This document shows positions 11,200-31,356 of a DNA stretch of 38,874 bases, in pieces. The stretch lies in IMG/VR virus record IMGVR_UViG_643692022_000007. One strand, written 5' to 3'. Position numbers and translations under genes: made by a program. Source of the stretch: a virus. Lineage: Duplodnaviria; Heunggongvirae; Uroviricota; Caudoviricetes. Under the pieces are notes generated by a model. It searched no databases and was not told where the DNA came from. It saw only the letters and a program-made list of their open reading frames with translations. Each line of letters starts with the position of its first letter. Position 1 is the first letter of the stretch.

Positions 11200-11677
11200 T
11201 TATTCGCTCCCGTCATCGCAATGTTCCTTCCGGTGGAAGTAATTCCAACCGTTCCACTTCGCCAACTGGTTACCACTACCAACAGGCATACGGTTTGGAT
11301 AACCGGACTTACATTTAGCGGCTTTTGCTCTGTCCATTGCAGACAGTTTGACGAGTCTCTCTTTCCCGTATCTGGCAGTGGTTATAAGTTTTGCAGACGC
11401 TTCCAGCGCATAATCCGGAGCAATGCGGCAGGCAAGGTTGAAAATGACGGCATTGATAGCGTTATTTGATAAACCGTGTTCATCGCCAGGATCTGGAGCG
11501 ACATCTGCATCAGCGAAAATGTAGCCAACGTTGATACCTGGTGACGCATCACCGCCAAGCCACTCAGCCATCATCATTTCAAGGTCGTTGACGCCATCTT
11601 CCATGGACTGCGGTTCGACATCGGTTAACGTGGCATTTGATGCCACACCGAGCTTACGTAATGCCGCAAGAACTAAA

Positions 11678-11700
<23 letters not shown>
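11200..11700 (-). CDS. gp4: Tail adaptor protein, P22 gp4-like (start taken at an internal ATG downstream of the repeat)
   Basis: From [33 protein letters not shown]... the product is 166 aa, matching remembered P22 gp4 in sequence and length. The longer track ORF (to 11811) adds an (SQ)n leader that is probably another frame of the repeat, not part of gp4. Confidence 0.8.
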
Positions 11701-11950
<250 letters not shown>

Positions 11951-11962
11951 GCTTGTCTCCAG

Positions 11963-11988
11963 ATAAAAAAGGGAGCCGAAGCTCCCTC
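11963..11988 (-). terminator. Rho-independent terminator or attenuator just downstream of the coat gene
   Basis: Minus-strand hairpin GGGAGC-TTCG-GCTCCC followed by TTTTTT, between the coat stop (11995) and the next start (11950). Confidence 0.7.
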
Positions 11989-11994
11989 TGGTTA

Positions 11995-13290
11995 TCACGC
12001 GGTCTGGTTAGGCAGACCAACACCAATTGCCTCTGGTCGTACAGCACATGCTGAATACCACACAGCAATACGGCACTTACCAGACAGAGTGTTGATATCA
12101 CCCTGCGTTGCGAAGATGCCGTTAACACCAATACCAGGAATGCTGAAGGAAGAAGTTTTCATGCCAGCAAACAGTTCATGAGTTACCGGGATCGGCTGAG
12201 ACAGCAGACGGATTGAGTCATCAGCCCAGAACACGTTAGCGGTGGTTGTTGCCACGTTCAGAACATTTACCGGAGTGGTATCAGCAAGAGAGGTGTTTAC
12301 GTTAGCGTAAGCCTTCTCTTCTTTTGTCAGTGACGCGTCATCCAGTGCAATCGGTTTCGGCGTGATTTCGAGGTGAGTACCATCGATCACACGGGTGATT
12401 GAGAAAGTAGCATCATCAGTCAGCACGTTCTTCGCCATCTGAGACAGGAATTTCACACCAGTGAAGCTGATTTTGTCGCCGCGCTTAAATCCGGTGGTGG
12501 AGGATACGGTCACCGTTGCAACACGGTTGTCGACGTTCTCTTTGTTACCATCGGTATCAAGGGTGTATGCCTGCGGCTTAAACTTCTGCGCACCAGAAAC
12601 AGTTACACCAGTAGCGGTTGACTTGGTAACTGCCGGAAGTTTCGGTGAGCGAAGAATTTCATCAAAGCCAGCAATCTGACGCTGAATAGTACCGTTGCGA
12701 TACGCTTCTTCAGGAACGCGACCGAAGATGTCACCATCTACCAGGTTGCGGCCTGCTTTGCGGTAATCGTCAGGGTTCAGGAAGTAACTGATGCCCATAT
12801 CGCGGTTTAGCTCACGGGAGAACATCAGGCGCTCTGCATCAGACACAAAATCCCAGCCAGACAGGCCAGTAGATGGACCAATTGCGCGGGTATCGTGAAC
12901 AACAAGTGAGCCCATTTCGGTTGCCTGTTTGGCAATTGCTGACTCAATGTTATTCGCCAGTTTTTTGGCGGATGCCTGGATGCGGCGACGGTAAGAACGC
13001 TCATCACACAGGTCATCTGCACGAAGCTCGAAGAAATCGTTATCCGGATCGCCCATGTTGCATTTTACGGAGAGTTCCAGAATCCCGGTTGCGTTGCCAG
13101 TTAAATCCCAGCCAGTCTGAGTTGGCGCTTCCTGCTCAACAGGCATCCACACGGTGTTGCTTGAACGTTGCATGGATTCTGCCGGAGGGGTGTATTTTGT
13201 CACTTTGGACGCCATTGGCGTCAGGTTCTGGACGGTTTCGATGATTTCATCCAGAGCATACGTGACCAGTTGACCTTCATTTAATGCCAT
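11995..13290 (-). CDS. gp5: Major capsid (coat) protein, P22 gp5 family
   Basis: 431 aa; close match along the whole length to remembered P22 coat protein (MALNEGQ...[12 protein letters not shown]...RDMGISYF...GLPNQTA). Confidence 0.95.
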
Positions 13291-25920: not shown

Positions 25921-26103
25921 TTACATTGGTTTTGTAATGTTGCTAGTCATCGTTCGAATAACAAAATGCGTAAGTAACCTTGCTTTCCACATGTAAATCT
26001 CTTCAAGGCGAGATAAATCTACGAATACCGGACCTTTGTAATCTGGTCTCGATGCCCTTATGTATGAGCTAATAGTTTGTGCATCTTGCTCGTCAAGATT
26101 CAT
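25921..26103 (-). CDS. Hypothetical protein
   Basis: 60-aa ORF in the same operon. Confidence 0.3.
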   Translation of the reverse strand: MNLDEQDAQTISSYIRASRPDYKGPVFVDLSRLEEIYMWKARLLTHFVIRTMTSNITKPM

Positions 26104-26296
26104 GACTTCCCTCTCTAACAGACTTCAGATTATTCCACTCCGTTACCGCACTGCGATAATTCGCGGCCGCCACAGCAGCGTGGTTAGCGCAGTAGATTTG
26201 GCACCCGTTCTCCATGTCGAATATTGTCGGTGATTTTCCGCATTTACATTTTTTGGCACGCGGTGCGTCTGAACACATTCCGTTAACGGTGTCCAT
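26093..26296 (-). CDS. Hypothetical Cys-rich small protein
   Basis: 67 aa with CKCG...C...C spacing suggestive of a small metal-binding fold; first ORF after the terminator below the helicase gene. Confidence 0.4.
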   Translation of the reverse strand: MDTVNGMCSDAPRAKKCKCGKSPTIFDMENGCQIYCANHAAVAAANYRSAVTEWNNLKSVREGSHES

Positions 26297-26321
26297 CAGG
26301 ATCCCCCTCGTTCTTAATCCA

Positions 26322-26350
26322 ATAAAAAAGGGCTACTGTGTAAATAGCCC
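26322..26350 (-). terminator. Rho-independent terminator between the replication and nin modules (tR2-like position)
   Basis: Minus-strand hairpin GGGCTA-tttacacag-TAGCCC followed by TTTTTTATTGG. Confidence 0.7.
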
Positions 26351-26377
26351 CTGTTATTAGCTCAGTGATGTAGATGG

Positions 26378-27754
26378 TCATACGTCAGCCCCTTGTGCAT
26401 ATCGTCTGCCACGTGCACCGGGTGCATTTGATGTTGTGCAAATCTGTCTGGCTTCATCCTGGTCACATGCAACAAAGTGTCCGTTGCAGAACTGCTGGTA
26501 AACCGTACCAAGCGAGCCAAAACGGTTTTTCGTCACGATGATTTCAGCAAATGGCGCGGCGCTACTGTTCTCGTCATATACAGCTTCCCGATAGAGCATG
26601 ATGATTGAGTCTGCGTCCTGTTCAATGCTTCCTGAATCACGCAAATCTGCGTTTGTCGGGCGTTTGTTTGGTCGCTTCTCAACATCGCGCGAAAGCTGAC
26701 TTAGGGAGATAACAGGCGTTTTCAGGTCTTTCGCCATCGCCTTCAGGCTTCCGGAGATGTGAGCAATTGCGAGGTCGTTGCGATCTGCTTTCGGCTTCTC
26801 AATCAGGCCAAGATAATCCGCCATGATGAGTGACAGGTTTGGATTTTCCTGTTTATGCCGTTCTGCGATTGAGCGTATTTCTTCGACCGATAACCGCGAG
26901 GCATCGACTACCCATACATCCAAATCCGCAAGCTGACTCATGCCGTTAGCAACACGTGCCCAGCCCTCGTCATCCATCGATGCAGGATTTCGCAGTACGC
27001 TAACCGACATCCTCCCGGCGTTGGCAATGCTTCGTTCTGCAATCTGCAATGCGCTCATTTCCATCGAGAAAATCAACACTCCTCGCCGGACGTCAGAACC
27101 AGGAATAACGCGGCTTGCAACGCCTTCGGCAATCTTCAGCGCCAGCTCGGTTTTACCCATACCAGGACGAGCAGCGATTATCACCAGGTCTTCCGCGTTC
27201 ATCCCTCCGGTGATGGCATCAAGTTCTTCGATTCCGGTCTTCAGGGTATCGGACTCTTCTCCGTTCCTCAGACGCCTGTCAAGCGTGTCAGTGTAGTCAG
27301 TGATGATTTCACCCAACCGTACAGGTTTAACCTCGTCACGGGGCTTTCTGATGGCTGAGAGACGCTTTACAAGTTCATCCATCGCCTGACTCGATGCGTC
27401 GATGGTTCCGCTCTGAATTGGTTCACGCATTTCATCCATGATTTCCAGCACCAGACGGCGGTGATAGTTATCCGCGACCATTCCGGCATATCCCTTCAGG
27501 TTTGCGGCACTCGGGCAGTTTTTGCTGGTCATCAGGATTGACGTGAAATGCTCCTCTCCGCACGCCTCGGCAACCATCAGCGCGTCGATTAGGTTTCTGT
27601 TTCGCGCCTGCTTGCGGATAACCTCGAAGGCTTTCCGGTAGAGCGGAATTGAAAACGCTTCCGGCTCAAGCGTTGCCAGAACGTCACTGGCAGTTGGTGT
27701 TAATCCACCAATCAGCAGGCCACCGATAACGCTCGCTTCGATATCCTGTTTCAT
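26378..27754 (-). CDS. Replicative DNA helicase, DnaB family (P22 gene 12-like)
   Basis: 458 aa with a Walker A motif ([12 protein letters not shown]) and DnaB-like architecture; directly downstream of the O-like gene. Confidence 0.9.
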
Positions 27755-28698
27755 GCAATCCCCCTGTCTGCAAACTTCCCTTCACGAACTCCCGTTAACG
27801 AATCTTCTCTCAGCAGGTAATCAAAATCGGCCGTCCAGCCAGTGTCGTTGTCTCCGAAGTAAAACGGCTTGGCCTGATGTACAAACGCCCTGACATACGC
27901 TCTGAAACCGTCCACGTTTGGCGTTTTCAGTTGCGGGATGATTTTCTTCAGGCGGCGTTTGCGTTTCTCGTTGACCGCAACAGCGTGTGGCAGTCTGTCA
28001 CCGACTTCGGTGTTGTAGGCGTTCAGGAAGGATTCGTAGTCGATTCGTTCTGCCTTGCGACGTTCAGGTTTAACCTTCCCATCACCTCCCCCATTGGGGG
28101 GTAGGGGGGTATTATTTATATTCTTGTTAATACCTTCTTGTTCATGATGTGCGGTTGTTTGTGCGGCTTCATGTGCGCTTTCATGTGCGGCATGTACTCT
28201 GAAAGCCGCGCCATTGCTGGCTTCGTCATGTGCGTCATCATGTGCGGTTGTTTGTGCGGCTTCATGTGCGGGTGAATTGTTCATTTTTTGAGCGTATTCA
28301 TGGTAATTTGTGACGGTGATCACACGACCTTTTTGCTTCTCTCCATCAATGGAGATCATCCCCTCTTTCACAAAAACCTGAAGCATCCGCTCAACCTGAT
28401 CACGGCTTGCCGGCTTGCCATGCCTGTCGCATAACTGAAGACCTAAATCAGCTGCTGTCACAACCAGTTGACCGGGTTGCAGATGCCATTCATGACCTTT
28501 GAAATTCGCTTTGTATGGCTTTCTGGCGGCATTCAGGAGAAGGTTTTCCCACAGGGTGCGAAGATAAACATCTTTCGCCCATGACTGTTTCAGAATGCTC
28601 CGGTACAACGGAATGTAACCAGTTTTCTGGTTCTCCATCCTGTTGCTCCTGCGCTCGTGTGCGGCGCTGAAATCGTAGATTTTTGCTGTATTGCTCAT
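27751..28698 (-). CDS. Replication initiation protein (lambda O / P22 gene 18 analogue) containing the origin iterons
   Basis: 315 aa; N-terminus [10 protein letters not shown] resembles lambda O (MTNTAKILNF); internal repeated peptide [10 protein letters not shown] arises from DNA iterons within the gene. Confidence 0.8.
28140..28280. repeat. ori: Candidate replication origin: array of direct repeats (iterons) with adjacent G-run/AT-rich segment
   Basis: Roughly 36-bp unit catgatgtgcggttgtttgtgcggcttcatgtgcg present twice (about 28141 and 28239); six or more copies of tcatgtgcg-like core; followed at about 28083-28140 by gggggg runs and AT-rich sequence. Confidence 0.65.
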
Positions 28699-28700
28699 AA

Positions 28701-28973
28701 CTACCTGCCTTGACGAAAGACCTTAAGAACATCGTTAAACTGACTTACGGATATGTCTTCTTTGAGCAGCTTTTCCAGAAATGCGTTTGGAATGAACGTA
28801 TATCCCTCCTCTTTTGGTAGAGACGGGAGCAACGCCCTTGCCTCAGCCTTCAGAAGCTCAGTTCTGGCAACTTTCACAAAAGAGATTTGAGTTCTTTCAT
28901 CAATGGAACGAAGGAAGCGCAAACGCTTAACTTCTTTGTGTGTATCAGGTGGATTAAAGCCTTTGTTTCGCAT
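28701..28973 (-). CDS. Hypothetical protein between cII and the initiator gene
   Basis: About 90 aa from MRNKGFNPPDTHKEVKRLRFLRS..., GAGGT about 7 nt upstream of the ATG; no equivalent in lambda. Confidence 0.4.
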   Translation of the reverse strand: MRNKGFNPPDTHKEVKRLRFLRSIDERTQISFVKVARTELLKAEARALLPSLPKEEGYTFIPNAFLEKLLKEDISVSQFNDVLKVFRQGR

Positions 28974-29048
28974 ATAATTACCTCGTTGGATGTTGTTAAA
29001 ATTCCATTTGTATTTGATCAGAACGCTCGGTTGCCGCCGGGCGTTTTT
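28972..29048 (+). ncRNA. oop: OOP-like antisense RNA overlapping the 3' end of cII
   Basis: Plus-strand GATCAGAACGCTCGGTTGCCGCCGGGCGTTTTTTATTGGTGAG matches the remembered 3' end and terminator of lambda OOP RNA, antisense to cII. The 5' end is inferred. Confidence 0.6.
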
Positions 29049-29292
29049 TATTGGTGAGTCCATCAAGCGCATACTTAAAAGCCCTGCTAATCGGACTGAT
29101 GTCTGATGCCATTCCAAAAGCACACAGGACCGAAGCAATAAACCTCCAGTCCGTTCTGCTTATCTTCGATTCATGACAGCCAATCATCTTTGCCAGACCG
29201 CGCTGGGTAAGCGTTGACAGGTTGATGAGTAAATCTGTTTCTGCGCGATCAACGTCACGCTGTGATAGTTTGCTGTAACTTGTTTGTTCCAT
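28996..29292 (-). CDS. cII: CII transcriptional activator
   Basis: 98 aa; C-terminus TNKKRPAATERSDQIQMEF matches lambda CII almost exactly; N-terminal HTH region diverged. Confidence 0.85.
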   Translation of the reverse strand: MEQTSYSKLSQRDVDRAETDLLINLSTLTQRGLAKMIGCHESKISRTDWRFIASVLCAFGMASDISPISRAFKYALDGLTNKKRPAATERSDQIQMEF

Positions 29293-29356
29293 TTCTTACT
29301 ATTTCCATAGGTAAATAATCACTAATACTCATCTTTCGATGAGTGCTTAATTAGTT

Positions 29357-29391
29357 ACCGCGTTGTCGGCGGTGCAGATTGATAAAGAGCG
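29357..29391 (-). promoter_or_regulatory. nutR: nutR (boxA plus boxB) between cro and cII
   Basis: Minus-strand boxA CGCTCTTTA and boxB hairpin ACCGCCGACAACGCGGT, which resembles P22-type boxB. Confidence 0.65.
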
Positions 29392-29398
29392 GTGTTAC

Positions 29399-29626
29399 TT
29401 ATGCAGCCAGAAGGTTCTTTTTACTTATTTCAAGCATTTCGCTTGCTTGATATTTGCCACCAGAAATCTCTTCGATTTTTGAGGCGTATTTCGTTTTCCC
29501 AAAAAACTCAGTCTTAGGGAGGAAGCCGTTTTTGAGCCACTTATAGACAGCCCTTTCGCTAACTCCACAAGCCTTCGCAACTTCAGGTATGCCGACACCT
29601 TTAATCGGCTCATCAAGATTTTGCAT
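29399..29626 (-). CDS. cro: Cro-like repressor (HTH)
   Basis: First gene rightward of the divergent operator region; from MQNLDEPIKGVGIPEVAKACGVSERAVYKWLKNGFLPK... about 75 aa with a clear HTH. Confidence 0.7.
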   Translation of the reverse strand: MQNLDEPIKGVGIPEVAKACGVSERAVYKWLKNGFLPKTEFFGKTKYASKIEEISGGKYQASEMLEISKKNLLAA

Positions 29627-29704
29627 AGGAATGTCCTTTTTCGTACTTTCAGTACGCATTATGATTGAACTGAAAGTTTTTGCAAGTGCTTTAGTATCGT
29701 ACTC
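29627..29704. promoter_or_regulatory. Divergent OR / pR / pRM control region with repeated operator-like motifs
   Basis: 78-bp gap between divergent cro and cI. Contains palindrome CGTACTTTCAGTACG, a related inverted copy AACTGAAAGTT, and another CGTACT abutting the cI ATG. No SD before cI, consistent with a leaderless transcript. Confidence 0.65.
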
Positions 29705-30412
29705 ATGGTTCAGAATGAAAAAGTGCGCAAAGAATTCGCCCAGCGGCTAGCGCAAGCCTGTAAAGAAGCTGGTCTTGATGAACATGGTAGGGGAATGGCT
29801 ATAGCCCGTGCCCTTTCTCTTTCGTCCAAAGGCGTTAGCAAATGGTTTAATGCTGAGTCTTTACCGCGTCAGGAAAAAATGAATGCGCTTGCGAAATTTC
29901 TAAACGTTGATGTTGTTTGGCTTCAGCACGGCACTTCCTTAAATGGAGCGAATGATGAAGATACTCTTTCATTTGTTGGCAAATTAAAAAAAGGGTTAGT
30001 GCGCGTGGTTGGTGAGGCAATTCTTGGTGTTGATGGTGCCATCGAGATGACCGAAGAACGCGATGGGTGGCTCAAGATTTATAGCGATGATCCAGATGCC
30101 TTTGGCCTTCGTGTAAAAGGAGATAGCATGTGGCCTAGAATAAAATCAGGAGAATATGTACTCATTGAGCCTAACACCAAAGTATTCCCTGGTGATGAGG
30201 TGTTTGTCAGAACCATCGAAGGACACAACATGATCAAGATTCTTGGCTATGACAGAGATGGAGAATACCAATTTACAAGCATCAACCAGGACCACAGGCC
30301 AATAACGTTGCCTTATCATCAAGTAGCAAAAGTGGAGTATGTGGCTGGTATTCTGAAGCAATCTCGCCATCTGGATGACATCGAGGCAAGGGAATGGCTG
30401 AGAGATTCCTGA
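29705..30412 (+). CDS. cI: CI-type repressor (N-terminal HTH, C-terminal S24/LexA-like autopeptidase)
   Basis: 235 aa; HTH-like N-terminus; C-terminal domain with GDSM serine motif (VKGDSMWPRI) and downstream Lys, as in LexA/CI self-cleaving repressors. Confidence 0.9.
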   Translation: MVQNEKVRKEFAQRLAQACKEAGLDEHGRGMAIARALSLSSKGVSKWFNAESLPRQEKMNALAKFLNVDVVWLQHGTSLNGANDEDTLSFVGKLKKGLVRVVGEAILGVDGAIEMTEERDGWLKIYSDDPDAFGLRVKGDSMWPRIKSGEYVLIEPNTKVFPGDEVFVRTIEGHNMIKILGYDRDGEYQFTSINQDHRPITLPYHQVAKVEYVAGILKQSRHLDDIEAREWLRDS

Positions 30413-30518
30413 CATCAAAGTCATAGAGTGAGTTTTCTAGTTAGAAATAGTGGTCAATGGGTACGCTTAGGTAAACCGTTTAAACATAATAAACAAGCCA
30501 TATAAGATGAAATAAATC

Positions 30519-30896
30519 ATGAGCGATAAAGAGTTTAAAGTACTTAATTTTGATGATTTTGCTCATTATTTGAGCACATTGAACGGCGAACAAATTTGTC
30601 CAATGTGTATGGAAGAGTCATGGACGCTTTTCACCCCAAACAAGCTTCCTCCAGAAGACGAGGATAGGTATGTAATAAGTTCTATCCCAGGATCACTTAT
30701 TTCAAGTAAAAAACCTGAAAAATCAAATCTCTTCTTCAGAAGTTACAACAACGATGTCCTCCTGATGCAATGCAGAAATTGTGGATACATGGCATTTTTT
30801 AATTATAAAAAAGTCCAAGAAAACCTTGAATCAGGGGATTATATAAAAAAAGAAGATATAGATATGGTGGATGAAAATGACAAATCAGAAGACTGA
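30519..30896 (+). CDS. Hypothetical small zinc-ribbon-like protein (immunity-region moron, gene A)
   Basis: 125 aa; two CxxC pairs (CPMC at about residue 27, CRNC at about 85); acidic C-terminal tail; strongly AT-rich; first gene downstream of cI on the same strand. Confidence 0.6.
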   Translation: MSDKEFKVLNFDDFAHYLSTLNGEQICPMCMEESWTLFTPNKLPPEDEDRYVISSIPGSLISSKKPEKSNLFFRSYNNDVLLMQCRNCGYMAFFNYKKVQENLESGDYIKKEDIDMVDENDKSED

Positions 30897-31356
30897 TTTC
30901 TTCCGTCCAATGGAGTATGATAATAACTATGAGCAATTTGGTGTTATAGAAGCACACAGGAATGGTCGTTCTACTCCGTCATATCAGCCAGGCACCATTG
31001 GTAAGGATATCCCGGTTATTATTGCGCATAAGTTAAGCGATCAACCAGCAGGGGGTGAGCCACAGATGAGCGTAAAATCACTGTCACGTTGGGAGTTTTG
31101 GCTAGGGATTTTCACTGCCATTATTGGGATATTTTCCATTGTTGTAGGAGCAACGTGGACAATTTCTAATAATATCAATGATAAGATTAATGCATCAAGA
31201 CAAGAGCTAACCGGGAACATCCAATCCAGTCGAGCAGAAATCACGGCAAGAATTGACAGGCTCGAAGATAAGATGGAGTCTAATTTCAAAGAAACATCAT
31301 CGAATCTGTTCAAAATACAGGCAATTCTAGAAGCAAAATCCGACAAAGAAAAATAA
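30871..31356 (+). CDS. Hypothetical single-pass membrane protein with C-terminal coiled coil (immunity-region moron, gene B)
   Basis: 161 aa; MKM N-terminus; one TM helix (WEFWLGIFTAIIGIFSIVVGATW); heptad-like C-terminus; overlaps gene A by 26 nt; followed by a terminator. Confidence 0.6.
   Translation: MKMTNQKTDFFRPMEYDNNYEQFGVIEAHRNGRSTPSYQPGTIGKDIPVIIAHKLSDQPAGGEPQMSVKSLSRWEFWLGIFTAIIGIFSIVVGATWTISNNINDKINASRQELTGNIQSSRAEITARIDRLEDKMESNFKETSSNLFKIQAILEAKSDKEK

Follow-up and report, generated by a model that had tools for sequence, protein, structure and literature searches.

Bipartite arrays of a short repeat inside an O-like initiator gene mark the probable replication origin of a P22-like or lambdoid phage

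The 38,874-nucleotide viral record IMGVR_UViG_643692022_000007 (Caudoviricetes), the whole of which was analysed and is referred to here as the window, carries on its minus strand a 315-residue O-like replication initiator gene (27751..28698) with a set of short DNA repeats in the part that encodes its interdomain linker. These repeats raise the question of whether they represent a replication origin of the kind that lies inside the O gene of phage lambda, as the initial annotation of the window had proposed, or whether they reflect regulation, the sequence of the protein, the sites of another protein or past recombination. The proposal was borne out by comparison with related loci. The geometry of the repeats, their covariation with the N-terminal domain of the initiator, the fixation of synonymous positions and the conservation of the repeat cores make it likely that the repeats mark the replication origin of the phage, of the lambdoid type inside the initiator gene; they are very probably the binding sites of the phage's own replication initiator.

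Eight copies of one 8-bp core, CCGCACAT in the gene direction, were found within positions 28147-28271. They fall into two groups of four on a lattice of exactly 12 bp, with a start-to-start gap of 45 bp between the groups. The cores of array I, the first in the gene direction (28228..28271, minus strand), lie at 28264-71, 28252-59, 28240-47 and 28228-35 with 12-bp spacing and read, in order, CCGCACAT, CCGCACAA, CCGCACAT and ACGCACAT; those of array II (28147..28190, minus strand) lie at 28183-90, 28171-78, 28159-66 and 28147-54, again with 12-bp spacing, and read CCGCACAT, GCGCACAT, CCGCACAA and CCGCACAT. The inter-array spacer (28191..28227) sets the 45-bp gap. The initial annotation had counted at least six copies of a tcatgtgcg-like core; the array itself was confirmed (five copies match TCATGTGCG exactly), while the count had to be raised to eight. 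It had also reported a 36-bp unit present twice, which was located at 28142-28177 and 28235-28270; the two copies, offset by 93 bp, agree at 35 of 36 positions. The two match places per record in the BLAST output were attributed to off-register self-repeat at this offset and not to a second locus. On the plus strand, the motif TGTGCG occurs eight times within 28148-28270 (at 28148, 28160, 28172, 28184, 28229, 28241, 28253 and 28265), out of 17 occurrences in the whole window, and eight cores in 124 bp compare with a maximum of one to three per any 150 bp in 300 shuffled windows. All eight cores have the same orientation; CCGCACA is absent from the other strand of the array, and there are no 18-20-bp dyad iterons.

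In the gene direction the linker consists of four 12-bp units that each carry CCGCACAT or a version differing at one base, a 33-bp spacer, four further units, CATGAACAAGAAGGTATTAACAAGAATATAAATAATA and then CCCCCCTACCCCCCAATGGGGGAG. The AT-rich stretch (28110..28146; 37 bp, CATGAACAAGAAGGTATTAACAAGAATATAAATAATA in the gene direction) is a predicted DNA-unwinding element; it has a GC content of 21.6% and 26 purines among its 37 positions in the gene direction, is the lowest-GC 37-mer of the replication module and falls within the lowest 0.8% of the whole window. It is followed by a C-run/G-run element (28086..28109; CTCCCCCATTGGGGGGTAGGGGGG on the plus strand) that contains a C5-ATT-G5 inverted repeat and encodes TPLPPNGGG. 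The same element is present in coliphage HK97, in Salmonella phage P6 and inside the annotated rep_origin of Salmonella phage P22, and constitutes a P22/HK97-type right arm of the predicted origin. The earlier description of G-runs and an AT-rich stretch after the repeats holds in the gene (minus-strand) direction and not on the plus strand, where the order is G-runs, AT-rich stretch, arrays. Together, the arrays, AT-rich stretch and C/G runs span codons ~143-205 of the 315-residue open reading frame (ORF), between the segments that encode the N- and C-terminal domains, the limits of which were placed using Pfam, PHROG and the mosaic joints described below. The GC skew profile around the locus was uninformative at the scale used. 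A candidate hairpin in the spacer (GCCA-GCAA-TGGC) was dropped, since it was not maintained in relatives.

This layout resembles that of lambda, where four annotated 18-bp dyad iterons lie inside O (39034-39118) and are followed by an A-rich stretch and a palindrome. In both phages the predicted or known origin is located inside the initiator gene, between the sequences that encode the two domains, and the repeats, AT-rich or A-rich stretch and inverted repeat come in the same order, which is also that of P22; the likeness to lambda ori drawn in the initial annotation was thus upheld. The gene product is O-like, as had been stated, with a match to the Phage_rep_O family, an N-terminus that aligns with MTNTAKILNF of lambda O (MSNTAK in the window, MTNTAK in lambda) and a C-terminal domain like those of P22 gp18 and HK97 gp54. 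The number of recognition elements is also similar, with approximately eight at a pitch of ~11-12 bp in each case if the four lambda iterons are taken as two half-sites each. Lambda iterons bind O dimers. In contrast to the four contiguous 18-bp dyad iterons of lambda (TCCCTC...GAGGGA), the window has eight cores of 8 bp, all head to tail and divided into two blocks by a spacer of constant length (33 bp), in agreement with the earlier suggestion of a different initiator specificity. The N-terminal domain is barely alignable with that of lambda O (32% identity over 69 residues), and the C-terminal domains and their partners differ, the lambda P loader being replaced by a DnaB-type helicase in the window.

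An array that binds the initiator need not be the site at which replication starts. It could serve control (autoregulation, titration, handcuffing or incompatibility), with replication starting elsewhere in the genome. Plasmid iterons have such dual roles, in replication and in control, and a ninth core-like copy (GCCGCACACGA in the gene direction; chance expectation ~0.05) is present at 28655-28665, close to the 5' end of the gene and ~35 nt into the initiator ORF. This copy is not conserved, being absent from Klebsiella phage Mulock. Moreover, the arrays abut the lowest-GC stretch of the replication module and the P22-type right arm that is found in the annotated origin of P22, and just one further tandem repeat exists in the 38.9-kb window, a hexamer repeat at 11748-11805 that lies in coding sequence. 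A purely regulatory role was consequently considered unlikely.

The conservation of the arrays was followed in two sets of loci. The close set comprised 64 distinct alleles of the initiator gene from IMG/VR, the N-terminal domains of which were 98-99% identical to that of the window; the distant set comprised phage records identified by tblastn and 36 prophage loci obtained by a scan of one genome per species, with N-terminal domains 46-87% identical. The start-to-start geometry 12,12,(12),45,12,12,(12) was kept in ~38 lineages whose N-terminal domains ranged from 46 to 99% identity, and in nearly all readable lineages the arrays were followed by CATGAACAAGAA and an AT-rich stretch. The sequence of the core followed the class of the N-terminal domain. 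Six classes were distinguished, with the cores CCGCACAT (21 lineages), CCGCGCAT or CCGAGCAT (9 lineages), CCGATGAA or GCGATAAA (3 lineages), GAGGTAAC (2 lineages), GTCGAA (1 lineage) and CGATACAC (1 lineage). In a logo of the CGCACA units, C preceded the core in 106 of 137 units and T followed it in 116 of 137; only these flanks are free of bias, the other six positions having served to select the units. The equivalent logo for the CGCGCA class was not used, as matching with one mismatch had caught shifted registers.

Three further observations concern the material available for this comparison. In a contig of a Sodalis metagenome-assembled genome (L128, at ~1850-2080 of the locus), the array-spacer-array module has apparently been duplicated in tandem, with CGATACAC/CGGTACAC cores. 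In a Xenorhabdus ehlersii prophage (L095), the initiator ORF is truncated at 174 residues and the second array and AT-rich stretch have been replaced by unrelated sequence; this prophage is probably decayed. Database proteins similar to the N-terminal domain (P0001-P0068) were mostly labelled as partial and ended in the repeat region, which suggests that short-read assemblies often break at the array; they served for the structure alignment and were left out of the array reading.

The repeated DNA also yields a repeated peptide, as previously noted, with copies at protein residues 144 and 175. The arrays keep the reading frame and repeat every four codons, Ala-His recurs eight times, and the linker tolerates many amino acid changes, all of which would suit a histidine-rich, low-complexity linker (AH-x-x; metal-binding or a flexible tether) of which the DNA repeat was a by-product. 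However, the peptides encoded by the arrays of different classes are unrelated (AHEA, PDEP, VEGS and EVTN), while the DNA geometry is identical. In Salmonella phage L, which has a comparable pair of arrays, the period is 11 bp and the repeat is therefore not a codon repeat. Codon usage was counted for the alanine codons that adjoin His, Gln or Leu codons in the linkers of the CGCACA and CGCGCA classes. There were 134 GCA, 41 GCG, 18 GCT and no GCC codons, compared to 198 GCT, 194 GCC, 169 GCA and 126 GCG outside the linker; judged from their position, the 18 GCT codons belong to a YAQ motif upstream of the arrays, so that neither GCC nor GCT occurs at any array core. The codon before the alanine ended in C in 177 of 193 cases, essentially every array core, and the histidine codon after the core alanine was CAT in 149 cases and CAC in 3. 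The copies of a given locus almost always used one codon throughout, either GCA or GCG; three loci showed single exceptions. Because the geometry is invariant, the peptides are unrelated and the synonymous positions are fixed, the constraint on the repeats acts on the DNA and not on the protein, and a role at the protein level only is very unlikely.

The close alleles gave a consistent result. The linker was the most polymorphic part of the gene among the 64 alleles, and this variation avoided the cores. Non-singleton polymorphic sites were present at 2 of 64 core positions, compared to 23 of 61 in the intervening sequence and spacer (core versus intervening positions, Fisher p = 7e-7), and at none of the 37 positions of the AT-rich stretch; the corresponding values for the N- and C-terminal domains were 3.7% and 8.1%. 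The positions that did vary were those that change amino acids between the cores, which is a further argument against selection for the peptide. Some alleles carried a 93-bp in-frame deletion, produced by recombination between the two 36-bp units, that left a single array of three cores and removed the spacer. These were found in one IMG/VR record (L075) and in the chromosome of E. coli N54 (L131; NZ_CM165885.1, 1528463-1529257).

The spacer itself behaved differently at the two depths of comparison. Its centre (28202-28220; CCAGCAATGGCGCGGCTTT in the gene direction), which encodes S-N-G/D-A-A, was conserved in every core class and in phage L, even though the spacer was polymorphic among the close alleles. 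A common factor, possibly from the host, could bind at this centre.

That the cores belong with the N-terminal domain of the initiator was indicated by mosaic relatives. In Klebsiella phage Mulock, an N-terminal domain 80% identical to that of the window is combined with a C-terminal domain of lambda type and a loader of the lambda P type, and the same eight CGCACA cores are present with the same spacing. Conversely, a contig that shares the C-terminal domain of the window, with only 52% identity in the N-terminal domain, has cores of the CGAT type. HK97, P6 and P22 have the C-terminal domain of the window (99%, 97% and 60% identity, respectively), its C-run/G-run element and its helicase, whereas their N-terminal domains are lambda-like and their iterons are ~20-bp dyad-symmetric sites with other sequences. 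The cores therefore go with the N-terminal and not with the C-terminal domain.

These data also bear on whether the cores might be the sites of some other protein, for instance one of the host or a further regulator of the phage, in place of the O-like initiator. The central spacer motif is conserved whatever the core class, and some element of the locus may therefore serve a factor common to all classes. The cores themselves, in contrast, switch class together with the N-terminal domain encoded by the gene around them, remain CGCACA without change across Escherichia, Klebsiella, Xenorhabdus and Yersinia hosts, and differ between prophages of related hosts. Furthermore, covariation of the core with two residues, described next, points to the N-terminal domain itself. 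Recognition of the cores by a protein other than the initiator was regarded as highly improbable.

Only two of the ~135 columns of the N-terminal domain alignment separated the CGCACA from the CGCGCA loci. Residue 82 is Ala or Pro in the CGCACA loci and Ser in the CGCGCA loci, and residue 100 is Asp in the former and His in the latter. The CGCGCA lineages are scattered in the N-terminal domain tree, three of them (L106, L112 and L120) each having nearest neighbours of the CGCACA class; since they do not form a single clade, the association between residues and core goes beyond shared descent alone. The N-terminal domain (residues 1-135; coding region 28294..28698, minus strand) is a predicted winged-helix, origin-binding domain, as judged from an AlphaFold2 (AF2) model, fold matches and the mosaic relatives. 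The model has a predicted local distance difference test score (pLDDT) of 71.8 and contains helices at residues 44-58, 82-88 and 99-111 and a hairpin at 115-129. Foldseek comparison of the model with the PDB gave weak matches (E ≥ 3.6e-3) that were consistently to winged-helix proteins (CAP, MarR, CodY and RbkR) and were used as a hint of the fold; a PDB sequence search with the whole initiator yielded no meaningful match. Residues 82 and 100 begin the predicted helices 82-88 and 99-111, which in the model sit where a winged-helix fold has helix 2 and the recognition helix. We infer that these two residues may read the A-to-G variant of the core.

The positions of the mosaic joints were determined by BLASTN. 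Matches to HK97, P22 and P6 start at 28125 and those to Mulock and to Yersinia phages stop at 28115, so that two independent kinds of joint lie within 10 bp of each other, both inside the AT-rich stretch (28115-28125). From 28125 through the helicase gene, the DNA of the window is 96.5% identical to that of HK97 and 78% identical to that of P22. Given these joints and the contrast between Mulock and the HK97, P6 and P22 mosaics, the predicted origin consists of two modules: a specificity module made up of the N-terminal domain and the arrays, and a helicase-recruitment module made up of the right arm, the C-terminal domain and the helicase or loader. A specificity module combined with a helicase-recruitment module is the classical picture for lambda O. 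The locus is evidently a recombination hot spot, with its 93-bp deletion alleles, duplicated module in L128 and nearby mosaic joints, but it is extremely unlikely that the repeats are a functionless by-product of slippage or recombination at the mosaic junction, as an identical lattice with its 45-bp gap is kept across N-terminal domains only 46% identical and the cores are invariant while the positions between them vary approximately tenfold more.

By analogy with lambda O and ori and with P22 genes 18 and 12, a sequence of events can be proposed for the reading of the repeats as an initiator-bound origin. The N-terminal winged-helix domain would bind the eight CCGCACAT cores head to tail on the 12-bp lattice, as two blocks of four placed 45 bp apart. 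Since all cores point in the same direction and the blocks of some relatives contain odd numbers of cores, the initiator would probably be placed on them as monomers, head to tail. The resultant nucleoprotein complex would distort the DNA and strain the adjoining 37-bp AT-rich stretch until it opened, after which the C-terminal domain, of the P22 gp18/HK97 gp54 type, would recruit the phage's own DnaB-type helicase, encoded immediately downstream.

Several points weigh against this reading or temper it. Initiator binding and origin firing have comparative support only, and the origin of phage L, the closest parallel in layout, is itself a sequence-based prediction (PMC8022706). The model of the N-terminal domain is of moderate confidence and its fold matches are weak. 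The 8-bp head-to-tail cores are unlike the 18-bp dyad sites that bind O dimers in lambda. The 93-bp deletion alleles imply either that the full array is not strictly needed or that the prophages carrying them are defective, and gene conversion between repeats could have contributed to the uniformity of the cores within a locus.

The nearest parallel was found in gene 18 of Salmonella phages L and ST64T, for which a putative origin has been annotated from sequence (MW013503; Zaworski et al. 2020, PMC8022706); that paper lists six repeats, without the bipartite geometry, and cites no experimental test. In phage L, short head-to-tail repeats lie in threes on either side of the same conserved centre (ACCAGTAATGACGCGGC, encoding SNDAA) and are followed by an AT-rich stretch, and the O-like gene adjoins a DnaB-like helicase gene, as in the window. 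The core (TGTCCAACGGA), the 11-bp period and the 44-bp gap differ from those of the window, where the corresponding distances are 12 and 45 bp. A bipartite layout around a conserved centre (CCAGYAATGRCGCGGC) occurs in two forms: 4+4 cores with a 45-bp gap and CCAGCAATGGCGCGGCTTT in the window, and 3+3 cores with a 44-bp gap and CCAGTAATGACGCGGC in phage L. The window initiator (residues 1-312) and L gp18 (residues 1-299) are 22% identical by BLASTP (E 1.7e-10).

P22 and HK97 (gp54/gp55) resemble the window from 28125 onwards, having in common with it the right-hand part of the AT-rich stretch, the C-run/G-run element, the C-terminal domain and the DnaB-type helicase. Unlike the window, they have lambda-like N-terminal domains and four ~20-bp dyad-symmetric iterons of other sequences. 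In the P22 record, a rep_origin is annotated inside gene 18 and covers the iterons, the AT-rich stretch and a CCCCCTTACCCCCTAAAGGGGG element. The Shiga toxin (Stx)-converting lambdoid phages 933W and P27 also have iterons inside O (Kozlowska et al. 2020, PMC7466680); however, these phages have lambda-type O proteins, six lambda-like iterons and a P loader, and the allele of the window belongs to a different N-terminal domain family. The biochemistry of Stx-phage origins covers only the lambda-type O proteins of 933W and P27 (PMC7466680).

More distant parallels were also noted. Phages of Gram-positive bacteria have origins inside replisome-organizer (DnaD-like) genes. One of these genes, ORF30 of Lactobacillus phage phiAT3, has an N-terminal domain that is a distant relative of that of the window (~31% identical), and PHROG families named 'DnaD-like helicase loader' also match the window domain. 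Directly after the N-terminal domain of ORF30 (L130, 1537-1591) there are five TGTCAATCAA repeats with an 11-bp period. In this case, unlike the window, a single tandem array was seen, with no bipartite layout or conserved spacer, and the partner is a DnaC-like loader. Two further TGTCAATCAA copies lie upstream, at 1407 and 1472 of L130. Plasmid iterons of the RepA or pi type are head-to-tail repeats that are bound by winged-helix initiators beside an AT-rich unwinding element. The window likewise has head-to-tail repeats, a predicted winged-helix initiator and an adjoining AT-rich stretch, but plasmid iterons are 17-22 bp long with ~22-bp spacing and usually lie outside the rep gene, whereas the cores of the window are 8 bp long with 12-bp spacing and lie inside the gene.

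An origin at this position is an expected element of lambda- and P22-like phages, and the locus can be described as the less-studied bipartite short-repeat class proposed for phage L, joined to a P22/HK97-type right arm. A bolder view can be offered only tentatively: that the arrays define a distinct and undescribed class of O-type origin, widespread in Enterobacterales prophages, in which initiator monomers occupy a 12-bp lattice in two blocks exactly 45 bp apart, around a specificity-independent centre possibly read by a common (perhaps host) factor. Such a class would include at least six specificities, among them one in which the replacement of Asp100 by His, with that of Ala82 by Ser, goes together with an A-to-G change at core position 5 (CCGC[A/G]CAT). 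The six core classes on a fixed scaffold, together with the covariation of two residues with one base, provide a natural specificity series. With it, one could examine how DNA is recognised by a winged-helix initiator and how origin specificity is exchanged as a module independently of helicase recruitment.

The identity of the initiator and of its neighbours was consistent with an origin at this locus. The initiator ORF matched Pfam Phage_rep_O (PF04492) with 56.6 bits (cut-off 28.7; E 3.7e-15), and PHROG 345, 'replication initiation O-like', matched both of its domains. The C-terminal domain (coding region 27754..28110, minus strand) is predicted to recruit the helicase and is of the P22 gp18/HK97 gp54 type, with 99% identity to HK97 gp54 and 60% to P22 gp18 by tblastn; by BLASTP, identity to P22 gp18 was 58% (E 5e-51). 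Immediately downstream, with its start overlapping the initiator stop codon, lies the gene for a 458-residue replicative helicase of the DnaB family and P22 gene 12 type (26378..27754, minus strand; Pfam DnaB_C, E 8e-78; DnaB N-terminal domain, E 4e-13). Genes for cI, a cro-like protein and cII lie upstream of the initiator in the gene direction. At the DNA level, the initiator gene showed 97-98% identity to the gene named 'O' or 'replication protein' in CUS-3, HF4s, JEP4, Gally and dozens of Stx2a-converting phages. On the basis of the Phage_rep_O match, the adjoining DnaB-type helicase and this allele identity, the window was classed as the genome of a P22-like or lambdoid phage whose replication module pairs an initiator with a helicase.

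The initiator allele was present in ~49 records of Stx2a-converting phages, and the replication module in 281 of 5,426 complete E. coli genomes. Among the records with listed annotation, none had an origin feature under the match for the window allele. The likely origin is now placed for the module of P22-like coliphages (CUS-3, HF4s, Kapi1 and JEP4) and of many Stx2a-converting phages. Replication of Stx phages affects toxin gene dosage, and knowledge of the origin and of initiator specificity is therefore of practical use for these phages.

Searches for other features near the locus gave the following results. An oop-like antisense RNA between cII and O was rejected as a candidate, since the conserved 28-nt oop promoter/5' sequence quoted in PMC3349717 was unmatched within 3 mismatches, and an Rfam scan of positions 26000-31000 gave no matches. 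The hexamer repeat at 11748-11805 is a perfect TCTGGC repeated 9.7 times. Read from the minus strand, it gives (SQ)n at the N-terminal end of a 203-residue ORF (11200-11811). Another frame yields (EP)n near the C-terminus of a 106-residue ORF (11678-11998), just downstream of a 431-residue coat-like gene. Between cII and the initiator there is a 90-residue ORF (28701-28973, minus strand) that ends 3 nt before the initiator start codon; it matches phrog_2519, a family of unknown function, over its full length (E 2e-57).

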